Counted from the stretch's first letter, positions 2,683 to 52,634 are shown. The stretch: 64,000 bases of DNA from an uncultured Phycisphaeraceae bacterium (GCA_964649195.1 CAZYPK010000004.1:8000-71999), one strand, 5' to 3'. The notes: a model not told the origin generated them from the letters alone. Made by a program: numbers and translations.

Positions 2683-4233
2683 TCAATTGACGGGCGACTC
2701 CAAAGAAGAATGATGGGTGAATCTGTAGAGGGCGACAAAACGATCCTGCCATATGATCGTCAATCGCCCGCGAGATGACAGGGCTTCGTTCAGTTCGGCA
2801 AGTCCCTCGATGACCGCGCCGTGATGATGGCTCACAGCCAGGAGCACATCGCGGCGGGTGGACAATCCCATGAGGGGGATCAGTTCCTTGCCGGACGTGC
2901 CGACCGTGATCCACCCCGATTCCCGGATCGATCCTGCAATCGGACGCGGAGCCAACGCTTGGTTGATGCGTGCGGCCGGCATGAGCACAACGATGTCATC
3001 GTTGGTCGCAACCTCGGCGGTTCGGTCAAGCAGCTTATCCACCGAGGCCACCTCGTAGTCCGCACCGCCCGATTCGCGCCACACCACCGCAAGCAACAGA
3101 AGTGCGGGAATCAGGCCGGCCCAACGTGACATGAGACGGGCATTCCCCCCTTTGATCCATGCGTTGCATCTGCACAACAACCAATCGGCAAATTGAATGG
3201 GACCGAAAGCGGCGGCCAGATGCAACAGGACGAGCATGTGAACATTAACGCGCATATTCAACGGCCACACTTTGAACGTCGCGGCCGCCAACGTGATCAT
3301 CACCACACTCAGGACACCCAATCCCGAAATCGGATCCTGGCGAATCCAAAAAACCAGGCCGACAATCGACAGCGAAAGAACGATGCCGCCGGACAGCGCT
3401 TCGTAGCGAAACCAACAGTTTTCGATGAGTGTCGCCAGGGATCGGAAGGCATGTGAAGGCCAGTTGAAATCCAGGGGCAGGTAATACTGATGCCAGAATC
3501 CTTCAATCGTGGCGCTGCCTGCGATGAGCCGATTGAATTGAGTGTGTATCACGCCCGCAATCACCGCCAGGGCGAACGCGAACAGCAACGCCCGCCTCAG
3601 TTGCGGATACTCGCGGGCTTTGATCAGTGAAAGACCGGCCACGAGACCGGTTCCCGCAACGCCGAACCACGCCGCAAACGTGCAGGAAATCGCAAGCAAT
3701 GCGAGCAGAAACCAAATCCATGCGGCCCGGCCGCGCACGGCAGGCGGACCCGCAACCCAGGCTCGCATGGCCAGAAGCAATCCGAGCGTGATGGCGGCCT
3801 CAAAGACGTACTGTTTGATTTCCGTCGCATAGCGTTGAAACATGGGCATGAGCGCCAACACGGCCACCGCGGCAAGGGATGGAACAAGGTGGCGCGTGCC
3901 TCTGGACGCCAATCGCAACGCCATCAACACCACCACCCCGCCCGCCAGGGCCGATGCCACGCGAAATGCCGTGACTTCCAACGGAGCCAGTGTCGAAAAC
4001 CAATGCATGAACGCCACATGGCCCAAAGGCGCCGGAGCGCTGTTGTGCAACAAGATCGCCCAGCCTTGCGATATGGCCGGCTGAATCGCGGCTTCGATCA
4101 CCCACGCCTCGTCATAGAACGCGGAACGATTCAGATGCGGCCACAACGCCGCGACAATGGTCACGAACACAATCAAACAAAATATCCTGCTCGCCAAGCC
4201 TTCGCGAGAATGAGATGCTTCCTTGAGAATCAT
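2683..4233 (-). CDS. Polytopic membrane protein, putative ArnT/PMT-like (GT39/GT83-type) glycosyltransferase
   Basis: 516-aa ORF with more than 10 predicted hydrophobic helices followed by a soluble C-terminal domain. The family call is by architecture only. Confidence 0.55.
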   Translation of the reverse strand: MILKEASHSREGLASRIFCLIVFVTIVAALWPHLNRSAFYDEAWVIEAAIQPAISQGWAILLHNSAPAPLGHVAFMHWFSTLAPLEVTAFRVASALAGGVVVLMALRLASRGTRHLVPSLAAVAVLALMPMFQRYATEIKQYVFEAAITLGLLLAMRAWVAGPPAVRGRAAWIWFLLALLAISCTFAAWFGVAGTGLVAGLSLIKAREYPQLRRALLFAFALAVIAGVIHTQFNRLIAGSATIEGFWHQYYLPLDFNWPSHAFRSLATLIENCWFRYEALSGGIVLSLSIVGLVFWIRQDPISGLGVLSVVMITLAAATFKVWPLNMRVNVHMLVLLHLAAAFGPIQFADWLLCRCNAWIKGGNARLMSRWAGLIPALLLLAVVWRESGGADYEVASVDKLLDRTAEVATNDDIVVLMPAARINQALAPRPIAGSIRESGWITVGTSGKELIPLMGLSTRRDVLLAVSHHHGAVIEGLAELNEALSSRGRLTIIWQDRFVALYRFTHHSSLESPVN

Positions 4234-4520
4234 TGTCGCTTTTTATCGGTTCAAATGACTTTTTCCTTTATCGTCATATCAAGTTGGACGACCGCCCGTG
4301 GACCTTCCGGGCTTCTCTGGAATAGCGATGAATCCAAGTGCGGAATAACCATTTCCTGACAACCGCACTTCAAACGAACGGGAACGGCGGCGGCTTCGTA
4401 AGATCGATCGAGGCGCCGGGCCTGCCGCAGGAGCGGGCCGGGTTTTCAGCGCTGGAAGCGGACGCCAACACAAAACTCCCATCGTCACCACCGGCCGGAT
4501 CGTCATGACCGGCACCCAAC

Positions 4521-8136: not shown

Positions 8137-9450
8137 TCAAACCGGTTCACTGCGGCCGGGCGATGCCAATGCGTACTCCGTATTTTTCGCGTTCTCCTTG
8201 CCCAGCACCTTGTCGTAGATCGCCTCGATCTTCTCCATGCGGCGGGTGAAGCTGTATTGCCTTTCGATCAGCGTTCGGCCTTCTTCCGTCATGCGTTGCC
8301 GCAGCGGTTCATCGGTCACCGCCCGGCGCATCGCATCGGTCAGCGCATCCACATCGCCGATGTCCACCAGCAACCCGTTGACCCCGTCGGTGATCATCCC
8401 GGGCACGCCCGCCACCTTCGTCGAAACCACCGGCACGCGCATCGCCATCGACTCGAGCACCACGTTGGGCAACCCTTCGCGCAGGCTCGAAAGCACGAAC
8501 AAATCCATCGCGTGATACAGGGCAAGCGTGTCGCTGACGAACCCGAGCAGCTTCACGCGGTCGGCCACCTTCAGGTGATCGATCAGTTTTTGAAGCTCAG
8601 GTTTCGCATCGCCATCACCTGCGATCCACAGTTCGATGTCATGCCCTTCACGGATGAGTTTGGCGGCGGCCTGGATGAGCAGATTGAAACCCTTTTCCGC
8701 ACTGAGCCGCCCCACCGCACCAATCACCAGACGACTGCCGGGCGTGCCTTTGTCCAATCGCATCGGAGATTCGCCGGCGACGTGCCTGCGGCTGAAGGTT
8801 TTCTCATCGATCGCGTTATGCACCAGCGTGTGGCGATCTTCGGGAATCTTCAGTTCCTTCACCACCTCGAGCAGGTCTTCGGAGACGCAGATCACATGGT
8901 GATACCACTTGAGGCTCCAGCGATCGACGGCGTAATAGAGCGGCGTCCTGCTCGTGTGCTTCACCCAGCCATGCACGGTGGTCACCAGTTTCATCCTGTG
9001 AAACGGACGCAGCATCAGGCCGATGAGGTTCGATTTGTAATCGTGGCCATGCCATATCTTGACGTTGTACCGCTTGCAAAGACCGAGCATCCTGGCAAGC
9101 ACCTTGCGATCCAGCGGCCCGCGATCAGGCACGCTGATGAGCGGGCTGCTCCAGTTTTTGGCGCGATCCTGAACCGTGGCGAAGCCCTTGTCCTCGGGCG
9201 GATGCATATACGCGGCCGCCAGCCAATAGTTGGAATGAGAAAGGAAAGGCGAAGAGAGCAGAATTGTTTTGTCAGGACCGCCGCCTGTTTCAGTGACCAC
9301 ACGGGTATGAAGCACGACATCGCGCCCAGGCGGCGCGATGGGCAGGCCTTGGTCGTCAAGTTTCAGGTGGTCGGCAGGTGTGTCCACGGATGGCCTCGGG
9401 AACAAGCGGACGAACAGGAAGAAGCGGCGGATGGCGATCTCATGAAACAA
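8137..9450 (-). CDS. Glycosyltransferase family 4 (GT-B, group 1)
   Basis: Motifs GGGPDK, SLREGLPNVVLESMAMRVPVVSTKVAGVPGMI and a C-terminal E-x7-E type region. Confidence 0.85.
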   Translation of the reverse strand: MFHEIAIRRFFLFVRLFPRPSVDTPADHLKLDDQGLPIAPPGRDVVLHTRVVTETGGGPDKTILLSSPFLSHSNYWLAAAYMHPPEDKGFATVQDRAKNWSSPLISVPDRGPLDRKVLARMLGLCKRYNVKIWHGHDYKSNLIGLMLRPFHRMKLVTTVHGWVKHTSRTPLYYAVDRWSLKWYHHVICVSEDLLEVVKELKIPEDRHTLVHNAIDEKTFSRRHVAGESPMRLDKGTPGSRLVIGAVGRLSAEKGFNLLIQAAAKLIREGHDIELWIAGDGDAKPELQKLIDHLKVADRVKLLGFVSDTLALYHAMDLFVLSSLREGLPNVVLESMAMRVPVVSTKVAGVPGMITDGVNGLLVDIGDVDALTDAMRRAVTDEPLRQRMTEEGRTLIERQYSFTRRMEKIEAIYDKVLGKENAKNTEYALASPGRSEPV

Positions 9451-9630
9451 TCGCCCGCATTGGCATCGTCGTCTGTTTACATGAGCGATAGCGATGGCGC
9501 CGGAGAATCAGGGATTATTTTCGATTAGTGGCCACGTATGACAACCATGCAGACTGTACGCAGGACATGATTGGAAAGGTCGAAAAAAACGGCCGTTCGA
9601 TTTGGAGCCAGGGCGTGATAAGCAGAAAGG

Positions 9631-9715
9631 ACTCCTAAATAACCTCGCGCCCAAGCCGCTTGCGGCGTAGCAATCCCCTGGTTCACGGTACATCGGGCGG
9701 TTATTCAGAAGTCCC
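9631..9715 (+). repeat. Repeat family R1 (GAATAACC ... GGTTATTC hairpin element), copy 1
   Basis: Shared core AATAACC-N-CGCCCAAGCCGCTTGCGG-N-ATCCCCTGGTTCACGG-N-GGTTATTC with the other R1 copies. Confidence 0.8.
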
Positions 9716-9775
9716 GGAACTTTCTTCAAGCAAGTGGCCGGCGGGGTGGGCGGAGGTCTTCCGAACCTGAGTTCG

Positions 9776-10006
9776 ATAAGAGCGAGCCACGACGTAACAC
9801 GTCGCGGACATGAGCAGCCTCAAGGGTGGTCATGCACGCCTTGGACGGTGGAACTCGAAAACGCCAGGCATCGCATTCGCAGCCACGCGACAAACGGGCG
9901 CGTGCCGCTCATCCGCCGCGCGACGGATACCGCTCAGCCATCGCGCGATCGACACGCCTTCAGGTCGCACACGTCCGCGACTCGTTGAGTCGCGGCTCAC
10001 TCTTAC
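9776..10006 (+). repeat. Repeat family R2 (twin CCGCGAC-hairpin element with about 45-bp terminal inverted repeats), copy A
   Basis: Left hairpin CCACGAC-GTAACAC-GTCGCGG and right hairpin CCGCGAC-TCGTTGA-GTCGCGG. Inner TIR strands ACATGAGCAGCCTCAAGG and CCTTCAGGTCGCACACGT. Confidence 0.8.
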
Positions 10007-10173
10007 CTCCACGAATAGGGTTTTGCTCGCACCCGGTCATTGTCCTAACAAGAGAAACTCTTGTGTCAATAGCGACTTGCAGATAAAATGCGCGGAAGTG
10101 GTTGGATGCGTTATCCAATCTGTGGATAGACTAAACAATGGTTCGGCGTTGAAGCCCCGAGCTGCCGGAGGGC

Positions 10174-10443
10174 GTGGCGGTGGAGAAGCGGCGGGTCGTG
10201 ACCAACACCAGCGATCGGCTCATGCTGGTGTTCACCGAGCCGGAGGCGCAGGACTACTGGCTGCGGCCCGGCGATTCGGTTGAGGTTCGGGCCGAGGTTG
10301 CGTCCCCGACCGACGACTTCGAGCTGGAGGACACCCGCGACGGCGTCACCGTCTGGCCGTCCAACGGCATGGGGTACATCAGCACTTGGGCTAGCGGCGT
10401 GGAACTGGCGTGCGGGTTCCAGCGGCCCGCCGACTGGGCGTGA
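10174..10443 (+). CDS. Hypothetical small protein (candidate cassette ORF)
   Basis: 89-aa ORF with GTG start (in-frame alternative GTG at 10180). Followed 10 nt later by attC-like element a. No recognisable family. Confidence 0.45.
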   Translation: MAVEKRRVVTNTSDRLMLVFTEPEAQDYWLRPGDSVEVRAEVASPTDDFELEDTRDGVTVWPSNGMGYISTWASGVELACGFQRPADWA

Positions 10444-10452
10444 GCTGCAGCC

Positions 10453-10537
10453 GCCGAACCAGGCGCTGCACCTGACCGGGCGAGCATGTAGGCTTTTCGT
10501 GACGTGTAGCTCTCCGTGCCCGCCGGGGAGGTTATGC
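10453..10537 (+). repeat. attC-like imperfect palindrome a (GCCGAAC ... GTTATGC)
   Basis: The 7-nt boxes resemble the integron R'' (RYYYAAC) and R' (GTTRRRY) boxes. Inner arms CCTGACCGGGCG and GCCCGCCGGGGAGG are partly complementary. Begins 10 nt after an ORF stop. Confidence 0.4.
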
Positions 10538-10568
10538 TTATAATGGAGGCATCGAACCGAGGAAAGCG

Positions 10569-11054
10569 ATGGCCGAGCGTGAGCGCGTTTACGTGGAAAC
10601 CACCGTTGTCAGCTATCTGACTGCCCGGCCCAGCCGCGACCTGATCGTTGCGGGCCATCAGCAGATCACGCACGATTGGTGGGACACTCGGCGCGGAGAT
10701 TATGAACTTTGCGTTTCCCAACTGGTTTTTCAAGAGGCGGGGGATGGCGATCCGCAAGCGGCTCAAGAACGGCTTGCCGTTTTGGCGACGATGACGCAGC
10801 TTGGAATCAAGGATGAGGCGGTGTCTCTGGCGGAAGAATTGGTTCGAGCGGGGGCGTTGCCGACGAAAGCAGAGAACGACGCCTTGCACATTGCGGTCGC
10901 GGCAGTGCATCTCGTCCCGTATCTGGTGACCTGGAATTGCCGGCATATGGCCAATGCCACCATGCGGGCCCGGATCGAAAGCGTGTGCGCAAGCAAGGGA
11001 TTCAAGGCTCCGATCATCTGTACGCCGGAAGAAATGATGGAGGCAAAAACATGA
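10569..11054 (+). CDS. PIN-like nuclease domain protein (VapC-like toxin candidate), copy 1
   Basis: N-terminal VYVETTVVSY strand, DALHIAVA and LVTWNCRHMAN motifs. Paralogous to 11492..11962. Confidence 0.75.
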   Translation: MAERERVYVETTVVSYLTARPSRDLIVAGHQQITHDWWDTRRGDYELCVSQLVFQEAGDGDPQAAQERLAVLATMTQLGIKDEAVSLAEELVRAGALPTKAENDALHIAVAAVHLVPYLVTWNCRHMANATMRARIESVCASKGFKAPIICTPEEMMEAKT

Positions 11055-11296
11055 CCTGGTCAGACCCGATTGTGGATGAAGTCCGACGTTCGCGCGATGC
11101 TTATGCGGCACGATTCAACTATGACTTACGGGCGATCTTCCGCGATCTGAAAGAACAAGAAAGGCGTAGTGGCCGCAAGCTGGCTTCCTACGCCGAAAAT
11201 GCCGGGCCGAACCAAACGCCGCAGCCGACCGGGACCGCCATTCCGGTTCTTCCTGACACTCAATCGTTGCAGGCGGCCCCGACGGCTGAGCTTTAG
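11051..11296 (+). CDS. Small partner protein of the PIN gene (putative antitoxin), copy 1
   Basis: ATGA start/stop overlap with the PIN gene. N-terminus MTWSDPIVDEVRRSRDAYAARFNYDL is homologous to 11967..12197. The last roughly 30 codons lie inside attC-like element b. Confidence 0.65.
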   Translation: MTWSDPIVDEVRRSRDAYAARFNYDLRAIFRDLKEQERRSGRKLASYAENAGPNQTPQPTGTAIPVLPDTQSLQAAPTAEL

Positions 11297-11304
11297 CGTT
11301 GGGC
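11206..11304 (+). repeat. attC-like imperfect palindrome b (GCCGAAC ... GTTGGGC)
   Basis: The R' box fits GTTRRRY exactly. Arms GCCGCAGCCGACCGGGACCGCC and GGCGGCCCCGACGGCTGAGC pair with bulges. A 5-6 nt unpaired spacer follows each box. Confidence 0.45.
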
Positions 11305-11491
11305 ACGTGGCGAACCGTATCGGATAAGATGACGACTCTCGGTAGTGGGTTCAGTTTGAGGAGAAACTATGGGGTTGATGCCTAACCATGCAGATGCCGG
11401 GGTTGCGGTTATGATCTTCGGGCCGCTCCCTCGCGGCATCAAGAAGGCAGATATTGAAATCGGCGCGGAGGTCGTGCCGTGAAGAACCGGC

Positions 11492-11962
11492 ATGGAATCC
11501 GTCTATCTGGAAACCTCGTTCATCAGCTACCTGGTCGCTCGGCCCAGTCGTGACGTGATCGTCGCGGGGCATCAGCAGACCACGCACGAATGGTGGGACG
11601 ATCGACGGAGCCAGTTTGAGTGTTCGGTATCCCAGGTCGTCATTGACGAAGCCTCACTCGGCGATCCGGCGGAAATACAAAAGCGGCTCGCAGTCATCAA
11701 CGAGCTGCCAACCCTTGATGTGACGGAAGACACAAAGGCCTTGGCGAAAGCCATCATGGCTGCCGGCATGCTTCCACCGCACGCTTTTCCTGATGCCGCA
11801 CATGTTGCAGTGTCGGCGGTTCACGCGATCGATTATCTGCTCACATGGAATTGCAAGCACTTGGCAAACGCACAGATTGCGCGGAGAATAGCGGTGGTGT
11901 GCGAGAAGTTGGGCCACAAAACGCCCATTATCTGTACCCCCGAAGAACTCATGGGAGCCTAG
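11492..11962 (+). CDS. PIN-like nuclease domain protein (VapC-like toxin candidate), copy 2
   Basis: VYLETSFISY, DAAHVAVS and LLTWNCKHLAN motifs. Paralogous to 10569..11054. Confidence 0.75.
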   Translation: MESVYLETSFISYLVARPSRDVIVAGHQQTTHEWWDDRRSQFECSVSQVVIDEASLGDPAEIQKRLAVINELPTLDVTEDTKALAKAIMAAGMLPPHAFPDAAHVAVSAVHAIDYLLTWNCKHLANAQIARRIAVVCEKLGHKTPIICTPEELMGA

Positions 11963-11966
11963 CATC

Positions 11967-12197
11967 ATGTGGGAAGACCCGATTGTCGCGGAAGTCCATC
12001 GTGCCCGCGAGAAACTGGCGGCGGACTGCAACTATGACATCGAGGCGTTTTTCGCCGGTGTTCGAAAGCGTCAGGCGTTGCTGGGTGACAGACTTGTTTT
12101 GCCAAAAAAACGAGCCGAACCAACGACTGAAGCCGACCGGGGCCGCCATTCCGGTTCTGAGGGGACGACATCATCCAAGGCGACCCCGGCAGCTTAG
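11967..12197 (+). CDS. Small partner protein of the PIN gene (putative antitoxin), copy 2
   Basis: MWEDPIVAEVHRAREKLAADCNYDI is homologous to copy 1. The 3' end lies inside attC-like element c. Confidence 0.65.
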   Translation: MWEDPIVAEVHRAREKLAADCNYDIEAFFAGVRKRQALLGDRLVLPKKRAEPTTEADRGRHSGSEGTTSSKATPAA

Positions 12198-12211
12198 TCT
12201 TGACGTTCACC
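12114..12211 (+). repeat. attC-like imperfect palindrome c (GCCGAAC ... GTTCACC)
   Basis: Homologous to element b. Arms GCCGACCGGGGCCGCC and GGCGACCCCGGCAGC. The R' box is degenerate. Confidence 0.4.
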
Positions 12212-12238
12212 TACCTGCGATTGCCCTGCAAGCCGGGC
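12205..12238 (+). repeat. R6 duplicate, 5' part of copy 1 (before MITE insertion)
   Basis: GTTCACCTACCTGCGATTGCCCTGCAAGCCGGGC matches 13393-13427 with 2 mismatches. Confidence 0.85.
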
Positions 12239-12451
12239 CGTTTCATTCTTCCTCCCATCACCGGAAGCAAAAGTTCCAAATCGCAAATTCCAAATCTCAA
12301 ACAAACTCGAAAGCGAGCCGAACCGAGGCAAAACCGATCCGAATCCGGATTCTGTTTGATTGCGTTTTTTGTTCTTTGGAGCTTGTTTGGAGTTTGAAGT
12401 TTGTCATTTGGAACTTCCGACAGCGTGGGTGCCGGGGATTAAACAACCCTG
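12239..12451 (+). mobile_element. MITE family R3 (CCAAAT-heptamer foldback), copy 1, inserted in R6 copy 1
   Basis: Absent from the otherwise identical R6 copy 2. Flanked by imperfect direct repeats CAAGCCGGGC and TAAGCCGGC. Internal inverted arms are TTCCAAATCGCAAATTCCAAATCTCAAACAA and TTGTTTGGAGTTTGAAGTTTGTCATTTGGAA. Confidence 0.8.
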
Positions 12452-12460
12452 TAAGCCGGC

Positions 12461-12668
12461 TTCCAAACTTGCATCATTTCCCGGGTTGATTACGCTGTCT
12501 GCATCTTCGTTCGGGAATGTCAGGGGCGGCGGCTTGCCGTTGGGGTTTGTTGCTCGCTTGGTACCCATCTCTGATCAGGGAATCCGTTGCCGCGCACTCC
12601 TTGAGCAGCGAATGCCCCCGTTTTACGCGACATGCCTGTTTGTTAGGCATGACAGGTCGTTTCCCCCT
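12461..12668 (+). repeat. R6 duplicate, 208-bp block, copy 1
   Basis: Identical to 13428-13635 except one T/C difference (GCCTGTTTG versus GCCTGCTTG), by hand alignment. Confidence 0.9.
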
Positions 12669-12766
12669 TTCGGGTGGGAGTTCAAATGCGGGACAGTCTC
12701 TGTGCGGAATTCTGGATCATCCCACTCGACGGGAGCGGCAGCCAACAAGTTTTCAAGGAGTTACAC

Positions 12767-13027
12767 ATGCGAGTTCTGAGCATTGCGTCTGTTCTCTTGG
12801 TTGTTTCCCTCACCGGCTGTGGCGGCTCGGGCGCTGCCGCTGACAAGTACGATCAAGTGGCGGTCGGCATGACACCCGCCCAAGTCGAAGCAATCCTTGG
12901 CCCCGCGAGCAGCACCGTCGAGGAAATCTCAGGCGAGTTAAAGCTTTGGCTCATGGCTGATGGCACACAGGTCGCCATCTCCTTTGAAGATGGCAAGGTG
13001 AAGTCCAAAGATCGCGCGAAGCGATGA
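12767..13027 (+). CDS. Small lipoprotein (SmpA/OmlA-like fold candidate)
   Basis: Strong AAGGAG RBS at 12755-12760. Signal peptide with lipobox LTGC. 86 aa. Confidence 0.7.
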   Translation: MRVLSIASVLLVVSLTGCGGSGAAADKYDQVAVGMTPAQVEAILGPASSTVEEISGELKLWLMADGTQVAISFEDGKVKSKDRAKR

Positions 13028-13029
13028 TC

Positions 13030-13146
13030 GCCCAACCAACCGCTTGCAGTGGACGAGCTTGCGTGCGTGGTAAATTGTCATCGAGCCTTGTGCGTCCCCC
13101 GGAACCTGCCCCGCACGCGGCTCGCCACTGAGCGGCAGCGTTAGGT
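13030..13146 (+). repeat. attC-like imperfect palindrome e (GCCCAAC ... GTTAGGT)
   Basis: Both boxes fit the RYYYAAC and GTTRRRY consensus. Arms GCTTGCAGTGGACGAGC and GCTCGCCACTGAGCGGCAGC pair, with a bulged A and an extra loop. Lies exactly between two small ORFs. Confidence 0.5.
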
Positions 13147-13151
13147 GCGTC

Positions 13152-13364
13152 ATGAGTGACATCGATCCAGATGCCATCCTGAATCTTGACCAACTCGAAT
13201 ACAACGAGGAGTTGACACGCTACAAGGCGCAGCAGGACCGTACGGATCAGCAGCAGGATCGACTTGACCGCCAGAACGAACGCTTCGACCGTATCTTGGA
13301 CAAATGGGAAGAGCAGCAACGGCGGATCGATGCGCTACTTGATCGCTTGGAGAAACGCACCTAA
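13152..13364 (+). CDS. Hypothetical 70-aa coiled-coil peptide (candidate cassette ORF)
   Basis: Q/D/R-rich heptad-like sequence. ATG lies 11 nt after the GTTAGGT box of attC-like element e. The TAA stop lies inside the ACCTAAC box of element d. Confidence 0.45.
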   Translation: MSDIDPDAILNLDQLEYNEELTRYKAQQDRTDQQQDRLDRQNERFDRILDKWEEQQRRIDALLDRLEKRT

Positions 13365-13399
13365 CCAGGCGTTGCTGTTGAAACGCTGAACCGTTCACC
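13359..13399 (+). repeat. Short attC-like element d (ACCTAAC ... GTTCACC)
   Basis: The R'' box fits the consensus and contains the TAA stop of the upstream ORF. Stem CAG(G)CGTT/AACGCTG has one bulged G. Followed by the same sequence as element c. Confidence 0.35.
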
Positions 13400-13635
13400 T
13401 ATCTGCGATTGCCCTGCAAACCGGGCCTTCCAAACTTGCATCATTTCCCGGGTTGATTACGCTGTCTGCATCTTCGTTCGGGAATGTCAGGGGCGGCGGC
13501 TTGCCGTTGGGGTTTGTTGCTCGCTTGGTACCCATCTCTGATCAGGGAATCCGTTGCCGCGCACTCCTTGAGCAGCGAATGCCCCCGTTTTACGCGACAT
13601 GCCTGCTTGTTAGGCATGACAGGTCGTTTCCCCCT
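13393..13635 (+). repeat. R6 duplicate, uninterrupted copy 2, upstream of glnN
   Basis: See copy 1. Ends 175 nt before the glnN start codon. Confidence 0.9.
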
Positions 13636-13809
13636 GCGACGCTCGGCGAGACATGATGAATAAACGAATCCATCATATGGCTTTACGTTCGCCGCCGCTG
13701 ACCATCAGAGATGGCATGTTTTTTGCATCTGGAACTTTACAGCCAGGGCTGTGCCCGGCCATGCGTGTCGATTTTGTTCGCAACCCTTTTGGACAGGAGT
13801 GGTCCACCC

Positions 13810-15987
13810 ATGAGTAATGCTCGTCAGGCCGCGATTGCCGCCATCACTGGTTACAAGTCAACGAATCAGGCTCTCAAGTACAAAGAGACGCCTGCTTCGA
13901 CGATTTTCGGCACCAACGTTTTCGGTGATGCCGAGATGAAAAAGCGTCTTCCCAAGTCGGTCTATAAGACCTTGGCGAGGACGATCACCCGAGGCGAAAA
14001 ACTCGACGCCAGTGTCGCCGACATCGTCGCCGCGGCGATGCGCGACTGGGCCATCGAAAAGGGCGCGACCCATTACGCCCACGTCTTTTTTCCCCTCACC
14101 GGCATCACCGCTGAAAAGCATGACTCCTTCCTCGACCCCCAGCCCGACGGCACGGTGCTCGCCGGTTTCTCCGGCAAGGTGCTGATCCAAGGCGAACCCG
14201 ATGCCTCCTCGTTCCCTTCAGGCGGCATCCGCGCCACCTTCGAAGCCCGCGGCTACACCGCATGGGATGTCACCAGCCCTGCCTACATCCTCGAAAATCC
14301 CAACGGCACCACCCTGTGCATCCCCACCGCGTTCGTCTCCTGGACCGGCGAAGCGCTCGACAAGAAGACTCCCGTTCTCCGTTCCATGCAAGCCCTGGCC
14401 AAGCAGGCCGCCCGCATCATCAAGATCTTCGGCAACCCCGATCCCGGTTACATCTACTCCACCGCCGGCCCCGAGCAGGAATATTTCCTGATCGACCGCA
14501 ATTTCTACTTCGCCCGGCCTGACCTGAACATCTGCGGACGATCGCTCTTTGGCGCCAAGCCGCCCAAGGGGCAGGAATTTGAGGATCAATACTTCGGCGC
14601 CATTCCCGAGCGCGTGCTGGCCTGCATGCTCGAAGTGGAACACGAATTGTTCAAACTCGGCGTGCCGGTGAAGACGCGCCATAACGAAGTCGCCCCGTCG
14701 CAGTATGAAATCGCCCCGGTGTTCGAGAACGCCAATGTCGCTGCCGATCATCAGCAGCTTGTCATGATCACGCTCAAGCGCGTCGCCGAGAAATACGGCA
14801 TGGCCTGCCTGCTGCACGAAAAACCCTTCGCCGGGATCAACGGCTCAGGCAAGCACCTCAACTGGTCGCTGGGCGGGCCCAATGTCGGCAACCTGCTCGA
14901 TCCGGGTGAGACCCCTCACGACAACATGCAGTTCCTCGTGTTCTGTGCCGCCGTCATCCGCGCCGTGCACAAATACTCGACGCTGCTTCGTGCCGCGATT
15001 GCTCACGCGGGCAACGATCATCGTCTGGGCGCCAACGAAGCTCCGCCGGCCATCGTTTCGATCTTCCTGGGCGACATGCTCACCGACATTTTCGAGAGCA
15101 TCGAAAAGGGAAAGCTCAAGAGCGGCAAAAAAGCCGGCCACCTCACCGTCGGCGTGGACAGCCTCCCCCCGCTGCCCAAGGACTACGGCGATCGCAACCG
15201 CACCAGTCCGTTCGCCTTCACCGGCAACCGCTTCGAGTTCCGTGCCGTCGGTTCCTCGCAATCCATCAGCGGCCCATTGGTCGTGCTCAACACGATCGTC
15301 GCCGAGTCGCTCGATTACGTCGCCACCGAACTGGAAAAAGCCACCAAGGGCGACCCCAGAAAGCTCAACGACGCCGTTCAGAAAGTCATGCAGGGCATCT
15401 ATAAGGAACACAAGGCCGTCATCTTCAACGGTGACGGCTACTCCGAAGCATGGCACAAGGAAGCCGCCAAACGCGGTCTCCCCAACCTGCCCAACTCCGT
15501 CGATGCGCTGGCGCAACTCATCAGCAAGGGAAACATCGCCCTGCTCGAGAAGTACGGCGTGCTTTCCGAGCGCGAAACCAAGAGCCGTTATGAAATCTAC
15601 CTGGAACGCTACTGCAAGGATGTGGCGACCGAAGGCAGGCTCTGCCTCAACATCGCCAAGACGATGATCCTCCCCTCGGCCTACCGCTATCAGGGCGAAC
15701 TGGCCACCACCGCCGCCGCCATCAAGACCGCCACCGGCTCGGCGGACACCTCCAGCCTTGATGAAGTCACCTCGCTGGTCTCCAAACTGGAGAAAGCCAT
15801 CGCGGGCCTCAACCACGCCATCGCCCACGAAGCCGGCGGATCGGTGCTCGATCACGCCAAGCATTACCGCGATGAGGTCCTCCCGGCCATGCTTGAGGTT
15901 CGCGCCGTGGCCGACGCCCTCGAATCGATCGTCGCCGATGACCTGTGGCCCCTGCCCACCTACCGCGAGATGCTGTTCATTCGCTGA
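13810..15987 (+). CDS. glnN: Glutamine synthetase type III
   Basis: 725 aa, with GSIII-length and conserved blocks ([46 protein letters not shown]). AGGAG RBS precedes the ATG at 13810. Confidence 0.93.
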
Positions 15988-16070: not shown

Positions 16071-16158
16071 GGGATTCCTGAATAACCGCACGCCCAAGCC
16101 GCTTGCGGTTTCGCGATCCCCTGGTTCACGGGCAATCGGGGGTTATTCAAGAAGTCCT
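16071..16158 (+). repeat. Repeat family R1, copy 2
   Basis: GGGATTCCTGAATAACCGCACGCCCAAGCCGCTTGCGGTTTCGCGATCCCCTGGTTCACGGGCAATCGGGGGTTATTCAAGAAGTCC. Confidence 0.85.
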
Positions 16159-16216: not shown

Positions 16217-16383
16217 AAGCCGCGACTCAACGAGTCGCGGACGTGAACAACCTGAAGCGGCGGAAATCGCGCAGTGACATAAGACCTCGAAAATCGTGAC
16301 CCGTCGGAACGCGGCTTCCTGTCATCCGCGCCGCCTTGCGCGCTTTCAGGCTGTTCGCCTCCGCGACGTGTCACGTCGCGGCT
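16217..16383 (+). repeat. Repeat family R2, copy B (shorter interior)
   Basis: CCGCGAC-TCAACGA-GTCGCGG ACGTGAACAACCTGAAG ... CTTTCAGGCTGTTCGCCT CCGCGAC-GTGTCAC-GTCGCGG. Lies 48 nt upstream of the ABC-F start. Confidence 0.8.
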
Positions 16384-16430
16384 GGAATCCCCCATTCAGG
16401 CTCGTTGCTCTCTGCTACCATTCCCGCCCC

Positions 16431-18263
16431 ATGGCCATGCTTCTCAGTTGTCAATCTCTCAGCAAATCGTTCGGCCCGCGCCCGCTCTTTGAAGATGTTT
16501 CGATGGGCATCGAGGAAGGCGAACGCCTGGGCCTCATCGGGCCCAACGGCTCAGGCAAATCGACGTTGCTGAAAATTCTCGCCGGCATGGAGCAGCCTGA
16601 CACGGGCGACTTCACATCCAGACGAAATCTGCGCGTCAGCTACGTTGCACAGCGCGATGAGTTCGAAGAAGGCGCCGCCGCCATGTCTGCCGTCGTCGCC
16701 GCGCTGGGCGGGCGCTTGCATGATGATCACGAACGCGAAGTCGCCGCCCGGCGTGTGCTTGAAAACGTCGGCTTCACCGACATGGATCAGCCGGTCGCCG
16801 CGATGTCCGGCGGTTGGCGCAAACGGCTGGCGGTCGCCCGCGCCCTGGTCACCGAGCCTGATCTGCTGCTGATGGATGAGCCGACGAATCATCTCGATCT
16901 GGAAGGCGTGCTCTGGCTCGAGGATTTTCTCGACGCCGCGCCGATGGCCATGATCGTGATCACGCACGATCGCTACTTTCTGGAGAACGTCTGCAACCGG
17001 GTGCTGGAACTGAGCAAGGCTTATCCGCAGGGCACCTTCACCGTGCAGGGACCCTACAGCGAATTTCTCCGGCGAAGAGCGGACCATCTTGCCGCCCAGC
17101 TCAAGGAACAACAATCTCTGGCCACGAAGGTGCGCGAGGATATCCGCTGGCTCGGCCGCGGCGCCCAGGCCCGGCGAACCAAGGCGAAAGGACGAATCGA
17201 AGAAGCCGGCCAGCGCATGGGGCAGCTCGATGACCTGAAGAATCGCAACGCGCCCAACCGCGCCGCCGACATCAGCTTCACCGCCACCGGCCGGCTCACG
17301 CGGAACCTCCTCGTCGCCAAAGACATCGGCAAATCACTGGGCGGGAAACCGCTGTTTTCACAGTTGGAAATCACGCTCTCGCCAGGCTCATGCCTGGGCC
17401 TGCTCGGACCCAACGGCAGCGGTAAGACCACGCTCATCAATGTCCTCACCGGCAAGCTCCCCAGCGACACCGGCGGCGTCAAGCTCGCAGACAACCTCCG
17501 CATCGTCACCTTCACGCAGCATCGCGAGGAACTCGATCCCAAGCAGTCGCTGCGCGAGGCCCTGTGTCCGGTCAGTGATGTGCTCTTCTTCCGCGACCAG
17601 CCGATTCATGTCAATACCTGGGCTTCTCGGTTTCTCTTCCGCGCCGATCAGATGAACACCTCCGTCGGCGATCTCAGCGGCGGCGAACAGGCCCGCATTC
17701 TCATCGCGCGGTTGATGCTGGAGCCGGCGGACCTGCTCATTCTCGATGAACCGACGAACGATCTGGACATCGCTTCGCTCGAGGTGCTCGAAGAAAGTCT
17801 CGCAAGCTTTCCAGGCGCCGTGCTGCTGGTGACGCACGATCGCTACATGCTGGCGCGGCTGTCGTCGCAGTTGCTCTCGCTTGACGGCCAGGGGAATGCG
17901 AAGTTCTTTCCCGATTACGAACAGTGGGAATCGTGGAAGGATCGGCAGGAGGAAGCGCGGGGGAAAGAGGCGGGGAAGCGGAAAGAGGCACGGACGCAGG
18001 GCGATGACGCTGCTACGCCGCAAGCGGCGGGGAAGGTGAAGCTCACCTACAAGGAGCAGCGCGACTGGGACACCATCGAGCAGCGCATCCTCGAAGCGGA
18101 AGAGGAAGTGAAGTCACTTGAAGCCCGCACCGCCGATCCCGCCATCCTGATCGATCATCGCAAACTCAACGAGGCCTACGAAGTGCTGGGCAAGGCACAG
18201 GCGAATGTCGCGGCGCTGTACGAACGATGGGCGGAGCTGGAGGCGAAGGTCAAGGCCATCTGA
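16431..18263 (+). CDS. ABC-F family ATPase (two ABC domains, no TM domain)
   Basis: Two Walker A motifs (GPNGSGKST, GPNGSGKTT), two LSGG signatures and a C-terminal coiled coil. Start set at the ATG at 16431, downstream of repeat R2-B. Confidence 0.92.
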   Translation: MAMLLSCQSLSKSFGPRPLFEDVSMGIEEGERLGLIGPNGSGKSTLLKILAGMEQPDTGDFTSRRNLRVSYVAQRDEFEEGAAAMSAVVAALGGRLHDDHEREVAARRVLENVGFTDMDQPVAAMSGGWRKRLAVARALVTEPDLLLMDEPTNHLDLEGVLWLEDFLDAAPMAMIVITHDRYFLENVCNRVLELSKAYPQGTFTVQGPYSEFLRRRADHLAAQLKEQQSLATKVREDIRWLGRGAQARRTKAKGRIEEAGQRMGQLDDLKNRNAPNRAADISFTATGRLTRNLLVAKDIGKSLGGKPLFSQLEITLSPGSCLGLLGPNGSGKTTLINVLTGKLPSDTGGVKLADNLRIVTFTQHREELDPKQSLREALCPVSDVLFFRDQPIHVNTWASRFLFRADQMNTSVGDLSGGEQARILIARLMLEPADLLILDEPTNDLDIASLEVLEESLASFPGAVLLVTHDRYMLARLSSQLLSLDGQGNAKFFPDYEQWESWKDRQEEARGKEAGKRKEARTQGDDAATPQAAGKVKLTYKEQRDWDTIEQRILEAEEEVKSLEARTADPAILIDHRKLNEAYEVLGKAQANVAALYERWAELEAKVKAI

Positions 18264-18357
18264 ATAACACCACGAAATCAGGAAAGCAGGAAAACATGAA
18301 ATGCAGATCATCCATTCCGTATGGTCCCGCCTGGTTTCCTGATTTCATGGTTTTATT
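18263..18357. repeat. Inverted repeat between convergent ABC-F and isomerase genes (terminator-like)
   Basis: AATAACACCACGAAATCAGGAAAGCAGG and CCTGGTTTCCTGATTTCATGGTTTTATT, with a roughly 40-nt spacer. Confidence 0.75.
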
Positions 18358-18368
18358 TAGGGATGTTT

Positions 18369-19349
18369 TTATGTGCGGGCCACGGCCGCCTTCATTTTCG
18401 CCAGACCGGTTTTGGCGACTTCCAGCGGGTCCTGCTTCCAGTATTCGCGGTTGAAAAGCTCCAGGCTCAGCACGGCGGCGGAGCCGTTGCGGAGCATGCC
18501 GCGCAGGGTTTCGGTGATGGGGGCGATGCCGTCGCCGGGGTAGATGCGGTCGGCATCGGTGATCTTCTCGCGCGGCGGATCGGCGGGGTAGTCGTTCATG
18601 TGGAACACCTGCACGCAGCTTGACGAAAGCTGATTCATGCTCACGAATGATGAGCCGCCCTTGTGCAGATGATAAAAGTCAGGCAGGAGACAGGCGCGCG
18701 GATGGCCCGCTTCGAGGGCGACGAACATCGAGTCCGCGAGTTTGTTCAGGCACTTGGAAAATCCCCAGACTTCGACCATCGGTGAGATGCCCGCGGCATC
18801 GCCGACTTCGCAGAGTTCGCGGTAGCGCTGAGCGGCCTTGCGAAGATCGAGGTCGGCCTGATTGGTGGCACCGGCAGGCGGCGCGGCGATGCGTGTGCCG
18901 CCGAGCTGCGCGACCATGTCCATGTCGCGCCGGGCGGTTTCGAGGCCGCGCGCGCGCTTGGCGTCATCATCCACGATCCACTCCGCGAAGCCGATGGCGG
19001 ATTCGACGGTGAGGTTCAGATCCTTGAGGCGTTTGGCCATATCCTTGAGCGAGCCGCCGCCGGTGACGTATTCGCTGATCGTGCCGATCCACGGTTCGAC
19101 CGAGTCGTAACCGGCGGCGGCGGCGGTTTCGATTTCCTTGACGAGACCCAGCTTCTGCCCGCGAATCGTGGCCATGTTCAGGCAGTATTTGAAGGCGGGT
19201 GTCGGGTGGTTCCGGGAGTGGGTGGCTCCGGGGGCGGGTGTCGGCGTGGATTCAGCGGCGCGGAGATTGTTGGTGGTTGCCGCGAAGCCGCAGGCGGCCA
19301 GAGCGGAAGTCGAAAGAAAACGGCGGCGGTTCTGGTTCATGTTTCGCAT
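18369..19349 (-). CDS. Sugar phosphate isomerase/epimerase (xylose-isomerase-like TIM barrel) with Tat signal
   Basis: N-terminus MRNMNQNRRRFLSTSALAA is a twin-arginine signal, followed by an AP-endonuclease-2/TIM barrel-like sequence. The rest of the listed 604-aa ORF is antisense to glnA. Confidence 0.85.
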   Translation of the reverse strand: MRNMNQNRRRFLSTSALAACGFAATTNNLRAAESTPTPAPGATHSRNHPTPAFKYCLNMATIRGQKLGLVKEIETAAAAGYDSVEPWIGTISEYVTGGGSLKDMAKRLKDLNLTVESAIGFAEWIVDDDAKRARGLETARRDMDMVAQLGGTRIAAPPAGATNQADLDLRKAAQRYRELCEVGDAAGISPMVEVWGFSKCLNKLADSMFVALEAGHPRACLLPDFYHLHKGGSSFVSMNQLSSSCVQVFHMNDYPADPPREKITDADRIYPGDGIAPITETLRGMLRNGSAAVLSLELFNREYWKQDPLEVAKTGLAKMKAAVART

Positions 19350-19382
19350 GATAGCGGAGAGATGGGAAAAAGAGAGCGGAAA

Positions 19383-19412
19383 CCCACGCACGGGAGTGCG
19401 TGGGCTTTTGCC
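19383..19412 (+). promoter_or_regulatory. Terminator-like hairpin in the glnA leader
   Basis: Stem CCCACGCAC/GTGCGTGGG, loop GGGA, then CTTTTGCC. Ends 25 nt before the glnA ATG. The upstream gene is divergent. Confidence 0.45.
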
Positions 19413-19436
19413 GTTCTCTTCTGATACTTTATTTCC

Positions 19437-20849
19437 ATGACGCCCAAGCAAGTCCTGCAACTGGTCAAGCGGAACAAGATCGAATTCGTCGATTGCCGGT
19501 TCATGGATTTCCCAGGCCTGTGGCAGCACACGACCTACCCGGCCGGTGAACTCAAGGAGGAGAGCTTCACCGTGGGCTTCGGCTTCGACGGTTCCTCCGT
19601 GCGCGGCTGGCAACGTGTCAACGAAACCGACATGCTGCTGGTGCCCGTGGCCCACACCGCCAAGGTCGATCCCTTCTTCGAGCATCCGACGCTTTCGATC
19701 ATCTGCGACATCAAAGACCCGATCACCAAGAAAGCCTACTCGCGCGATCCGCGCTCCATCGCCCGCAAGGCGGCGGCTTATCTGACCCGGTGCGGCATTG
19801 CCGACACCGCCTACTTCAGCCCGGAGATGGAGTTCTTTGTCTTCGACAGCGTCTCCTACGATCAGCAGATCAACACCGCCGGCTATCACGTGGACAGCAT
19901 CGAAGGCGTGTGGAATCGAGGCAGACAGGACCCGACCAATCTGGGAAATCAGGTGAGGCTTAAGGAAGGTTTCTTCCCGATGCCGCCGATGGATACGGGG
20001 CAGAACCTGCGCAGCGAGATGGTTGATGTGATGCTCAAGATGGGCATCGCCGTCGAGAGCCATCATCATGAAGTGGCGACAGGCGGGCAGGGTGAAATCG
20101 ATCTTCGCCATCAGGATCTGGTCTCGATGGCGGACACCTGCATGTATTACAAGTACATCGTGAAGAACGTCGCGGCGCGTCACGGCAAGGTCGCCACGTT
20201 CATGCCCAAGCCGCTTTTCATGGACAACGGCTCAGGCATGCACACGCACTTTTCCCTGTGGAAAGAAGGCAAACCGCTCATGGCGGGCAGGCATTACGCG
20301 GGGTTGAGCCAGCTCGGCCTGCATGTGATCGGCGGACTGCTCAAACATGCCCGCAGCCTGATCGCGCTCACCAACCCGACCACCAACAGCTTCAAGCGGC
20401 TCGTGCCCGGCTACGAAGCGCCGACCTCCTTGGTCTATAGCTCGCGCAATCGCAGCGCGGCGATCCGCGTGCCGGTCTATCAGGATAATCCCAGGACCAA
20501 GCGCATCGAGTTCCGCTGCCCTGATTCATCATGCAATCCTTACCTCGCCTTCGCGGCGATGACCATGGCGGCCATCGACGGCGTCAGGAACCAGATCGAC
20601 CCCGGCCCGCCGGTCGATCGGGAGTTCGACGAACTGGATCCGGCGGAACAGAAAGCGCTGGCCACGACGCCCGGCTCACTCAACGATGCGCTCGACGCCC
20701 TGGAATCCGATCACGCCTACCTGCTCGAAGGCGGCGTGTTCAACGAGGATGTGATCCGCTACTGGATTCAATACAAGCGCGAGAATGAAGTGATGGCCAT
20801 GCGGGCAAGGCCGCATCCTTATGAGTTCTGCATGTATTTCGACGTGTGA
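19437..20849 (+). CDS. glnA: Glutamine synthetase type I
   Basis: 470 aa with FDGSS, MPKPLFMDNGSGMH and NPTTNSFKRLVPGYEAP blocks. Confidence 0.95.
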   Translation: MTPKQVLQLVKRNKIEFVDCRFMDFPGLWQHTTYPAGELKEESFTVGFGFDGSSVRGWQRVNETDMLLVPVAHTAKVDPFFEHPTLSIICDIKDPITKKAYSRDPRSIARKAAAYLTRCGIADTAYFSPEMEFFVFDSVSYDQQINTAGYHVDSIEGVWNRGRQDPTNLGNQVRLKEGFFPMPPMDTGQNLRSEMVDVMLKMGIAVESHHHEVATGGQGEIDLRHQDLVSMADTCMYYKYIVKNVAARHGKVATFMPKPLFMDNGSGMHTHFSLWKEGKPLMAGRHYAGLSQLGLHVIGGLLKHARSLIALTNPTTNSFKRLVPGYEAPTSLVYSSRNRSAAIRVPVYQDNPRTKRIEFRCPDSSCNPYLAFAAMTMAAIDGVRNQIDPGPPVDREFDELDPAEQKALATTPGSLNDALDALESDHAYLLEGGVFNEDVIRYWIQYKRENEVMAMRARPHPYEFCMYFDV

Positions 20850-20865
20850 AGGAAAAAAGACAAAG

Positions 20866-20895
20866 CCGATGGACTCCTGTCCATCGGTTCCCTGA
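20866..20895 (+). terminator. Terminator-like hairpin after glnA
   Basis: Stem CCGATGGAC/GTCCATCGG, loop TCCT. The tail TTCCCTGATT has a weak U-tract. Confidence 0.5.
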
Positions 20896-21285
20896 TTGAA
20901 AACGATGGAAGAACACGATGTTCAAAACCCGTCCCAGCCGCTGATCATGCGGTCCTACCGTCGTCATCGCAAGCAGGCGAAATGGGGAACGTGGTCGCTG
21001 TTCGTTCCGCCGGTGACTTTTCTTTGGGTGATCTTCTGGTACCTGATGATGAAGCAGCCGCCCCTGCCCGGCGGTCCTGCAACGGATGCCGCCTCATCGT
21101 GGCTGGTGCTGCTGATCGGCGCCATCGCGATCGAGGCGGTCGGCATCGCCCTGGCGATCACGGGGCTGCGCGACACCCACCACAAACACGCTCACGCCGC
21201 GGCAGGACTGGCCCTCAATGCGTTCATCCTTCTGGCGGCGATCATCGCGCTGGCCTTGCGAATCTTCTCGCAGTCGGTGGGCTGA
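20896..21285 (+). CDS. Small integral membrane protein, hypothetical
   Basis: TTG start (ATG alternative at 20905). Three hydrophobic helices. Followed by a terminator hairpin. Confidence 0.55.
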   Translation: MKTMEEHDVQNPSQPLIMRSYRRHRKQAKWGTWSLFVPPVTFLWVIFWYLMMKQPPLPGGPATDAASSWLVLLIGAIAIEAVGIALAITGLRDTHHKHAHAAAGLALNAFILLAAIIALALRIFSQSVG

Positions 21286-21327
21286 TCCGCGAGTGCATGG
21301 GCGGCAATGCGTCAAGCATAAAAAGAA

Positions 21328-21366
21328 GCCCGGCCACCGTCGGGCTGGTGGCCGGGTCTTCTCTGT
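21328..21366 (+). terminator. Terminator-like hairpin after the small membrane protein gene
   Basis: Stem GCCCGGCCACC/GGTGGCCGGGT with an 8-nt loop. Flanked by AAAAAGAA and CTTCTCTGTC. Confidence 0.5.
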
Positions 21367-21775
21367 CGGGCATGAATGGATCGATGCCGTCGAGCTTTCT
21401 CCCCTTCGCCTTCTGCTCCGCTGACAGGGCGGAGGAATAATGTCGAAGGTTCACGATGTTGCGGCGCCTGCCCCCACCCGCATCCTGCCGGGACTCGCCC
21501 CTCCGCGAATCCCGGCAGTAAGCGGGCCTTACGCCCCCATGATGATCAGCACACGCCATGCCAGTTGGCGGCTCACCACCGTTACCACCTGATATTCAGG
21601 GGTTTGGCACACGGAAAAACATCAACCGCCTCATGGCAATCCCCTATTTCGGGGAAAAAGCCCCGAATCGGCTCCCCACCATTGGGAACTGTTCCCCAGC
21701 GGAGTGGATGGGCCTCTGATGAATCGGCGTCGGACGAACATGCGGCCCCGCCGTCAAATCACTAAACTCTGAGCC

Positions 21776-24765: not shown

Positions 24766-24866
24766 GGGATTTCCGAATAACCCCCGATGTACCGTGAACC
24801 AGGGGATCGCGATTTGCGAAGCCGCAAGCGGCTTGGGCGTGAGATTATTCAGGAATCTCAGCACCC
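24766..24866 (-). repeat. Repeat family R1, copy 3 (reverse orientation)
   Basis: The reverse complement matches copy 2 along its length. Lies between the divergent SIS gene and hisA. Confidence 0.85.
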
Positions 24867-28186: not shown

Positions 28187-28372
28187 GTCGGAAGCAAAAA
28201 TTCCAAATCACAAATTCCAAATCTCAAACAAACTCGAAAGCGAGCCGAACCGGGCAAAACCGATCAGAGACCGGATTCCGTTTGATTGCGTTTTTTTGTT
28301 TTTGGATCTTGTTTGGAGTTTGGGCATTTGTCATTTGGAACTTCCGGCAGGTGGCTTGGATACCGGGGGTAC
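28187..28372 (+). mobile_element. MITE family R3, copy 2 (5'-truncated)
   Basis: The core CGGAAGCAAAAATTCCAAATCACAAATTCC...CATTTGGAACTTCCGGCAG is about 90 percent identical to copy 1 by eye. Overlaps the stop of the HEAT gene. Confidence 0.75.
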
Positions 28373-33738: not shown

Positions 33739-33778
33739 ATAAGAGCCGCGACTCAACGAGTCGCGGAGATGAACAGTC
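33739..33778 (+). repeat. Repeat family R2, solo end E
   Basis: ATAAGAGCCGCGACTCAACGAGTCGCGGAGATGAAC. Confidence 0.7.
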
Positions 33779-52514: not shown

Positions 52515-52634
52515 TTCCGGGCCTCGTTCTCCGTTGCCCGCGCGATCGACGATTGCTACCTTACCGCTTCGCCGCGATCGGTCACACGCCGGCGAATCCT
52601 TATTTCACCGGACCTTTCGTCGAGGAGTCTTTCC

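Follow-up and report, generated by a model that had tools for sequence, protein, structure and literature searches.

A probable integrase-less cluster of integron gene cassettes in a Phycisphaeraceae chromosome

Layout of the array

We analyzed a 64-kb stretch of DNA from an uncultured Phycisphaeraceae bacterium (CAZYPK010000004.1:8000-71999, hereafter the window), in which a run of small open reading frames (ORFs) on the + strand is punctuated by five palindromes resembling attC, the recombination site of integron gene cassettes. We consider it highly probable that the interval 10141-13635, which starts 10 kb from the left end of the window and lies 50 kb from its right end, is an attC cluster that lacks an integron integrase (CALIN) in a Planctomycetota chromosome, composed of five co-oriented gene cassettes that each end in a Planctomycetes-type attC. 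An integron attC forms an imperfect hairpin from its bottom strand, and the integrase IntI binds the bulged bases and the R and L boxes of this hairpin. IntI cuts the R' box between G and TT; attC x attC recombination excises a circular cassette, and attC x attI recombination inserts one.

All features of the array lie on the + strand. Its left-most element is the crossover box GTTCGGC (10141..10147; G10141|T10142), the perfect complement of the R'' box of the first palindrome, at which cassette 1 starts. Cassette 1 (10142..10531) carries an 89-aa ORF (10174-10443) that stops 10 nt before the R'' box of palindrome a and matches no Pfam or NCBIfam family. The following two cassettes each contain a PIN-like ORF paired with a smaller one: in cassette 2 (10532..11298) the PIN-like ORF 10569-11054 is overlapped by the small ORF 11051-11296, and in cassette 3 (11299..12205) a 37-aa ORF (11369-11482) precedes the PIN-like ORF 11492-11962 and the small ORF 11967-12197. 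Cassette 4 (12206..13140) begins with a 245-nt leader, present in two pieces (12206-12239 and 12460-12668), and encodes a putative lipoprotein (12767-13027) with a lipobox signal peptide and a weak BamE/OsmE-like match. Cassette 5 (13141..13393) carries a coiled-coil-like ORF of 70 aa (13152-13364), for which neither Pfam nor NCBIfam yielded a family. A sequence-only reading that preceded this work had described the cargo as including a lipoprotein and small ORFs, and had placed ORF stops and the next ORF starts relative to the boxes; both descriptions hold.

A second, truncated copy of the cassette 4 leader (13394..13635) forms the right end of the array, starting at the G|TT of palindrome d. 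It is 94-99.5% identical to 12206-12239 plus 12460-12668, the identity ends at 13635, and no further attC follows. The sequence-only reading had noticed the same sequence after palindromes c and d, and the likeness proved to extend over a 36-nt repeat at 94% followed by 209 nt at 99.5% (one mismatch). The resulting 245-nt direct repeat (12204-12668 and 13392-13635) starts exactly at the G|TT of both c and d. It has no Rfam match, no homolog in any locus we fetched from other genomes and no convincing ORF. Rfam searches returned no match, and we therefore take it to be neither an RNA already described nor the end of a group II intron; the repeat is probably a duplicated cassette 5' region.

What splits the first leader copy is a 220-nt insertion (12240-12459); the repeats recorded for leader and insertion together are families D1, D6 and I2. 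This AT-rich, palindromic interspersed repeat of about 170-220 nt resembles a miniature inverted-repeat transposable element, with arms at 12271-12313 and 12374-12416. Its sequence (12262-12452) recurs at 28189-28354, 52410-52515 and 37953-38094, and is absent from the second leader copy.

Identity of the palindromes

The palindromes occupy 10453..10537 (a), 11206..11304 (b), 12114..12211 (c), 13030..13146 (e) and 13359..13399 (d). Their ten boxes were all found at the positions claimed for them: R'' and R' are GCCGAAC at 10453 and GTTATGC at 10531 in a, GCCGAAC at 11206 and GTTGGGC at 11298 in b, GCCGAAC at 12114 and GTTCACC at 12205 in c, GCCCAAC at 13030 and GTTAGGT at 13140 in e, and ACCTAAC at 13359 and GTTCACC at 13393 in d. 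All five have AAC in the 5' box and GTT in the 3' box, triplets that are invariant or nearly so across 73 related sites described below. The likening of R'' to RYYYAAC is borne out for this triplet and fails at position 4, where GCCGAAC carries G. In every element the first box is followed by CA and a 5-nt spacer, as the sequence-only reading had noted.

That reading had also ascribed the attC architecture to all five elements. The layout runs R'' (7 nt), 5-nt spacer, 3 bp, bulge, 6 bp, bulge, stem, variable loop, L', 5-6-nt spacer and R' (7 nt), and its full geometry is present in b, c and e; site a is decayed, and d is a remnant. Sites a, b and c have their first 28 nt in common. They show the 5-nt spacer, 3 bp, a bulged G, 6 bp and a bulged A, and the first bulge of e is 2 nt. 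Variable terminal loops measure about 35-63 nt, against a published range of 20-100 nt, and that of e is long. In a the 5' half is intact and the 3' arm is shortened. What is left of d, 41 nt, comprises the R'' box, its CAGGC spacer, GTT(G) and, as in the published consensus, the L' motif GCTGAAC; the stem, loop and 3' spacer are missing, and only the 5' part of the bulge geometry is present.

We built a covariance model, R1, from 73 sites of other genomes, excluding all window sequences, and ran it over the 64 kb with filters off. It supported four attC sites on the + strand within 10453-13146: b at 75.1 bits (E 3e-17), c at 67.7 bits (E 2.5e-15), a at 35.1 bits (E 9e-7, with 12 positions of the 3' arm deleted) and e at 20.3 bits (E 0.007, with boxes, spacer and A bulge aligned). 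Reverse-strand echoes of b and c reached 23.2 and 18.5 bits, and nothing else in the window was convincing. Folding of single-stranded DNA, compared with shuffles, gave z scores of -3.0 for c and -2.8 for e, whose bottom strand folds at -30.9 kcal/mol, and a modest -1.3 for b. Rfam searches returned no match at gathering scores over the whole window or at E up to 1 over 9400-13900; to our knowledge, Rfam has no attC family.

Two other sequences in the window came to our attention during these searches. A near-perfect, GC-rich palindrome of 79 nt (33782-33860) scores about 20-23 bits under R1, equally on both strands; it has no boxes and bears no relation to the array. The 173 nt (11305-11477) that separate site b from the conserved 5' edge of the second PIN-like cassette contain the 37-aa ORF and the motif GCCTAAC-CATGC at 11380, which equals the published Planctomycetes consensus for R'' plus spacer and has no hairpin. 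This motif (11380-11416) was considered as a sixth attC candidate. It does not fold (z +0.6) and was left as a chance occurrence or an eroded remnant; the 173 nt may be an eroded cassette.

An independent standard is provided by the Planctomycetes attC model of Ghaly et al. 2021 (PMC8352920, Supplementary Data 1), made from 188 sites. Its structure line specifies 7 paired positions for R'', 5 unpaired, 3 paired, 1 bulge (G in 62%) and a paired stem, ending in 7 paired, 6 unpaired and 7 paired positions for R', and its consensus reads GCCUAAC-AAuGC-GUU(G)CAgC ... GCUGAaC-UucGuC-GUUAGGC (PMC8352920). The window sites share this layout, namely the 7-nt R'', the 5-nt spacer, 3 bp, the bulged G, the stem, the L' motif GCUGAaC, the 6-nt spacer and R'. 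Their family differs in its boxes (GCCGAAC/GTTCGGC rather than GCCUAAC/GUUAGGC) and in its L boxes (GCT/AGC rather than GUU/AaC). We rebuilt the filter hidden Markov model (HMM) of the published model and ran it on the window with nhmmer at E up to 10. It gave exactly three matches in the 64 kb, all on the + strand: a (13.6 bits, E 0.0033, model positions 2-64 only), b (12.9 bits, E 0.0056, positions 2-103) and c (11.5 bits, E 0.015). Site e went undetected by this HMM in the window. These three matches, at E 0.003-0.015, amount to a tentative recognition by a curated attC model, and their modest scores reflect the boxes and L boxes that differ from the published consensus. On other loci the same HMM located 235 sites, 208 of which coincide with sites of the family described next, on the same strand.

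A pattern derived from sites a-c (GCCGAACCANNNNCNGNANCNGACCGGG), scanned against a genome collection in 8-kb blocks, matched at least 120 blocks, mostly from Planctomycetota (Gemmataceae, Pirellulaceae, Isosphaeraceae and Planctomycetaceae). Some of the matching metagenome-assembled genomes (MAGs) are labelled Acidobacteriota, NC10, Nitrospira, Proteobacteria, Armatimonadota, Woesebacteria (candidate phyla radiation) and Thermoplasmata. Fetched loci are referred to here by L numbers. Full family sites are 96-99 nt long, with the consensus GCCGAAC-CAGGC-GCT(G)CAGCWG(A)CCGGGGCCGC-[~35 nt]-GCGGCCCCGG-CWGCTG-AGC-[5-6 nt]-GTTCGGC. Among the 73 sites from other genomes, pairing is kept in 93.7% of cells, and it falls to 24-46% when the 3' partners are slid by one to three columns. 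Compensatory change affected 7 pairs on both sides. It amounted to 78 cells, where shuffles gave 22.7, and none of 500 shuffles attained as many. This covariation is located in the L stem, where we found CAGCAG/CTGCTG, CACCTG/CAGGTG, AAGCTG/CAGCTT and CAGCCG/CGGCTG. The four R' bases after GTT, by comparison, vary freely and are often unpaired with the nearly fixed R'', 27 of the 73 sites being unpaired at one position. Together, the tests applied here support the identification of the palindromes as attC sites, of which b, c and e are well formed, a is decayed and d is a remnant, and their attC identity and family membership are shown by these analyses.

The scan also brought up two features of the family's distribution. 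A near-identical 97-nt attC type occurs in a Thermoplasmata MAG (L043) and in Woesebacteria (L071), Mycobacteriaceae (L033), NC10 (L013 and L093) and Nitrospira (L060); its presence in distant phyla and in an archaeon could reflect cassette transfer or binning errors. A Planctomycetaceae MAG holds very large arrays of the same family at about 792-904 kb of CAVYVK010000011.1 (L066, L069, L041, L040, L077, L110, L018 and L048), where the pattern matches as often as 10 times in 8 kb. The + strand carries the sites until about 872 kb and the - strand those beyond about 880 kb, like two facing arrays.

Cassette boundaries, cargo and the integrase

Family sites located with nhmmer are organized as expected of cassette arrays in spacing, strand and cargo. 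Their start-to-start spacing has a median of 625 nt (5-95%: 320-2011), and all sites lie on one strand in 29 of the 31 loci with at least 3 sites. The 161 units between sites fall into 151 cargo clusters, and in 121 of these units the longest ORF is on the attC strand. If IntI cuts between G and TT, the six bases after the G belong to the next cassette, and R'' should therefore complement the R' of the preceding site. Of 42 neighbor pairs with differing R', 25 have an R'' that is the better complement of the R' preceding it and 10 an R'' that better fits its own R', the other 7 being ties (binomial p 0.017); clear cases include L081, where ACCTAAC follows GTTAGGT, as well as L039, L088 and L023. 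In the window, the DNA shared with L029 and L062 reaches as far as 12208, where the GTT of site c stands. These patterns show, by indirect evidence, that cassette boundaries behave as G|TT crossovers and that R' boxes are chimeric. Cassette 5 runs from TTAGGT to ACCTAAC, a perfect complement, as would be expected for a circularizable cassette, and cassette 1 runs from TTCGGC to GCCGAAC.

The box at 10141-10147 is a sixth crossover box and marks the left edge of the array. Its sequence, GTTCGGC, is present just 6 times on the window's + strand, and the 33 nt from 10141 match L058 5950-5982, which directly follows an attC in a Gemmataceae MAG; the ORFs beyond differ. A metagenome scan with the left junction (GGATAGACTAAACAATGG) returned three chance matches, none homologous to the window.

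The sequence-only reading had listed two toxin-like pairs; two pairs of a PIN-like and a small ORF are indeed present, and their PIN matches are weak, falling below the Pfam cut-off or lacking altogether. The PIN-like ORF of cassette 2 scores 17.8 bits against Pfam PIN (PF01850), below the gathering score of 23.6, and that of cassette 3 has no Pfam PIN match. Of 26 relatives, 6 match PIN at E up to 0.1 (best 2.9e-5), and NCBI names relatives 82% identical to the cassette 3 protein VapC family toxins. The predicted structure of the cassette 3 PIN-like ORF is poor (predicted local distance difference test score 60.6), its top fold match, VapC 5k8j_B, is not significant (E 1.0), and searches of Protein Data Bank sequences gave no match at E up to 1. 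A toxin-antitoxin function, which here would rest on weak PIN matches, is plausible.

Homologs of the cassette 2 pair (62-73% aa identity) occur in L083, L091 and L042, and those of the cassette 3 pair (76-93%) in L029, L096, L062, L052 and L098. In exact-protein look-ups, the only identical record was a 1.5-kb contig matching the window, and nothing was found for the cassette 3 PIN-like ORF or the 70-aa ORF; a plasmid search with a cassette gave no match. Sites b and c sit in the 3' tails of the small ORFs, with R'' starting 155 and 147 nt past the respective start codons. Because the reading frames differ, conservation at b and c is that of DNA rather than protein, and the final third of both small ORFs is attC read-through, not a conserved protein tail.

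The attC family is linked to integron integrases in other genomes. We searched by tblastn with IntI1 (used only as a probe) and with three Planctomycetota IntI proteins. Full-length relatives of IntI1 at about 50% identity were found in L010, L114 and L042; they score 435-455 bits on NCBIfam TIGR02249 (cut-off 265) and cover the whole profile. L063 carries a frameshifted IntI copy, and fragments occur in L117, L019, L015, L099, L083, L058 and L118. At least 11 fetched loci thus combine family sites with an integrase gene or fragment in the same 8-kb block, and in all 9 loci examined family sites flank the integrase gene or fragment. The sites are divergent from intI in L010, L063, L099 and L117 and co-directional with it in L042, L114, L019 and L118, and in L010, L117 and L099 about 120-160 nt separate the start of intI from the first GTTCGGC, which comes after AT-rich sequence. 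In L058, two fragments resembling the IntI C-terminus (1412-1609 and 4102-4287, about 60% identity over 63-67 aa) lie between attC sites inside the array. The same searches found no intI gene or fragment in the 64-kb window (best E about 1), in agreement with what the sequence-only reading had stated.

Left of the first crossover box lies a unique, AT-rich leader of about 136 nt (10006..10140, + strand). Its GC content is 46% against 62% for the window, and the attI regions of L010, L117 and L099 have 49-54% against 61-67%. It ends in ACAATG|GTTCGGC, the same as the attI-side junction of L117; local alignments with the attI regions of L117, L010 and L099 are no better than shuffles. The leader is a possible attI remnant. 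On its left it is bounded by a palindromic repeat of about 230 nt (9777-10005; 68-nt arms, 71% complementary), at the place where intI would be expected. This repeat belongs to a family interspersed within the window, with a copy at 36640-36853 and pieces at 16218-16257, 16345-16383 and 33743-33767. A third short interspersed repeat, intergenic and about 87 nt long (9629-9715), has copies at 24766-24857, 16072-16157 and 62732-62788 with 79-85% identity.

To the right, the array is followed by a gene for glutamine synthetase III with 88-91% aa identity to its closest relatives; relatives at about 80% are Phycisphaeraceae and Planctomycetes MAGs. Homology with the relatives' locus begins at 13712-13746. 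Nine glutamine synthetase III loci at 88-91% aa identity have in common only the gene and 65-100 nt upstream of it; their upstream genes differ, and none has attC. The block is accessory DNA, and in annotation the interval should be labelled as accessory and cassette borne. The 5 kb downstream of glutamine synthetase III (16414-21526) is inverted relative to the closest relatives (L122 12443-17863), and DNA upstream of 13712 is non-syntenic, which places the array at a rearrangement-prone spot. Three origins are conceivable for the array, as Cury et al. 2016 (PMC4889954) discuss for CALINs: intI may have been lost in place, a rearrangement may have separated it from the sites, or the array may have been inserted at a secondary site. 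The leader's attI-like end and the palindromic repeat abutting it where intI would start weakly favor loss of intI in place.

Alternative readings and known systems

Several observations weigh against an array of attC sites. R'' departs from RYYYAAC at position 4, site d is undetected by both R1 and the published Planctomycetes HMM over the whole window, and a (z 0.0) and d (z -0.4) fold no better than shuffles. Under that HMM the window sites reach 11.5-13.6 bits, compared with a median of 19.5 on other loci and 17.5-23.3 for sites adjoining IntI, and are thus members at the weak end of the family. The R'' of cassette 4 (GCCCAAC) complements the cassette's own 5' end (TTCACC) at only 3 of 6 bases. 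Beyond the window, 54 of 103 fetched blocks contain a single site, and the block is missing in its entirety from relatives with about 85% nucleotide identity; no strain-level presence or absence of a single cassette was seen at the locus.

The single copies, together with the position of GC-rich imperfect palindromes after ORFs, are what one would expect of generic intergenic repeats (repetitive extragenic palindromes or terminators) unrelated to integrons. None is found elsewhere in the 64 kb despite the other repeat families there; no T-run follows the palindromes; and dense same-strand arrays, integrase genes or fragments in the same blocks at no fewer than 11 loci, homology breaks at G|TT, chimeric R' boxes and bulges at the positions of the published model all speak for attC, leaving this explanation very little probability. 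We give equally little credence to the element being part of the PIN-like pair itself, as a conserved C-terminal coding tail or a cis-regulatory RNA. It does lie inside the 3' ends of small ORFs at b and c, and it accompanies homologous pairs in more than 10 other loci, often as the sole site in the block; the frames nonetheless differ at b and c, sites of this family come after 151 unrelated cargo clusters, the window ORFs that precede a and e are unrelated, and covariation preserves pairing rather than codons. Both explanations are largely refuted.

A less easily dismissed alternative is that the array, built by an integron, is now a dead relic with no usable site or integrase, and has become ordinary fixed chromosomal DNA. 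Erosion of a and d, the scores of the window sites under the published HMM, which are the lowest in the family, the repeat inserted in cassette 4, the truncated duplicate that ends the array without a final attC and the lack of intI in the 10 kb on the left and the 50 kb on the right are all consistent with this. Sites b and c nevertheless have all their boxes, the two bulges and an intact stem, with scores of 68-75 bits, and c and e fold far better than shuffles. Moreover, some half of all CALINs reportedly occur in genomes with an IntI gene at another place (PMC4889954), and our search covered the 64-kb window. On balance, we regard complete inactivity as unlikely, with appreciable weight behind it.

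In the main reading, that of a CALIN, sites b, c and e, which keep the full geometry, could still serve an IntI supplied in trans, either from elsewhere in the genome or by an incoming element. Such an integrase would release the PIN-like cassette 11299-12205 and the lipoprotein cassette 12206-13140. Sites a, with its shortened 3' arm, and d, a 41-nt remnant, are probably unusable, and since both are eroded their cassettes are probably fixed. The PIN-like pairs are plausibly addiction modules that prevent loss of the array. Present-day recombination and cassette expression, like the toxin-antitoxin function, are inferences. We also entertain, as an improbable speculation, that a PIN-like pair and its 97-nt attC form a self-sufficient "selfish cassette" that spreads and persists across phyla, usually on its own or within short clusters devoid of an integrase; arrays like the one in the window would be seeded at secondary GTT sites or orphan attI-like junctions and would not be leftovers of resident integrons.

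Integron cassettes constitute a large pool of genes without known function, and integrase-less clusters may serve as reservoirs for a resident or incoming integrase. They are a known and fairly ordinary feature of Planctomycetota chromosomes, and the array fits this existing kind. It leaves the general understanding of integrons unchanged and adds a Planctomycetota example in which site erosion is clearly visible: one arm has been shortened, a deletion has occurred internally and a repeat has been inserted.

Closely similar known systems include complete integrons of Planctomycetota MAGs (L010, L042, L063 and L114), whose attC family is that of the window array. In L042, a homolog of the cassette 2 PIN-like pair lies as a cassette between two attC sites downstream of IntI. 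These integrons possess intI, and the window array does not. We took a CALIN to be at least 2 attC sites clustered within 4 kb with no integron integrase nearby; the array has such a cluster within 4 kb and no integrase in the 64-kb window, and so qualifies as a CALIN in the sense that Cury et al. 2016 (PMC4889954) gave to the term. A complete integron would have intI adjoining the array and an attI, of which only an attI-like junction is suggested here. The essentials are identical to those of the CALIN as described (PMC4889954); here two of five sites are eroded, and the left edge resembles an attI-side junction. The Vibrio cholerae superintegron and other sedentary chromosomal integrons that carry toxin-antitoxin cassettes are likewise chromosomal, with small, mostly unknown cassettes, similar attC sites and interspersed addiction-type pairs. 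In Vibrio cholerae, these gene pairs are thought to stabilize the array. Relative to the superintegron, the window array is far shorter, lacks an integrase and has decayed sites, and its PIN-like pairs, with the toxin-like gene first, have a putative function.

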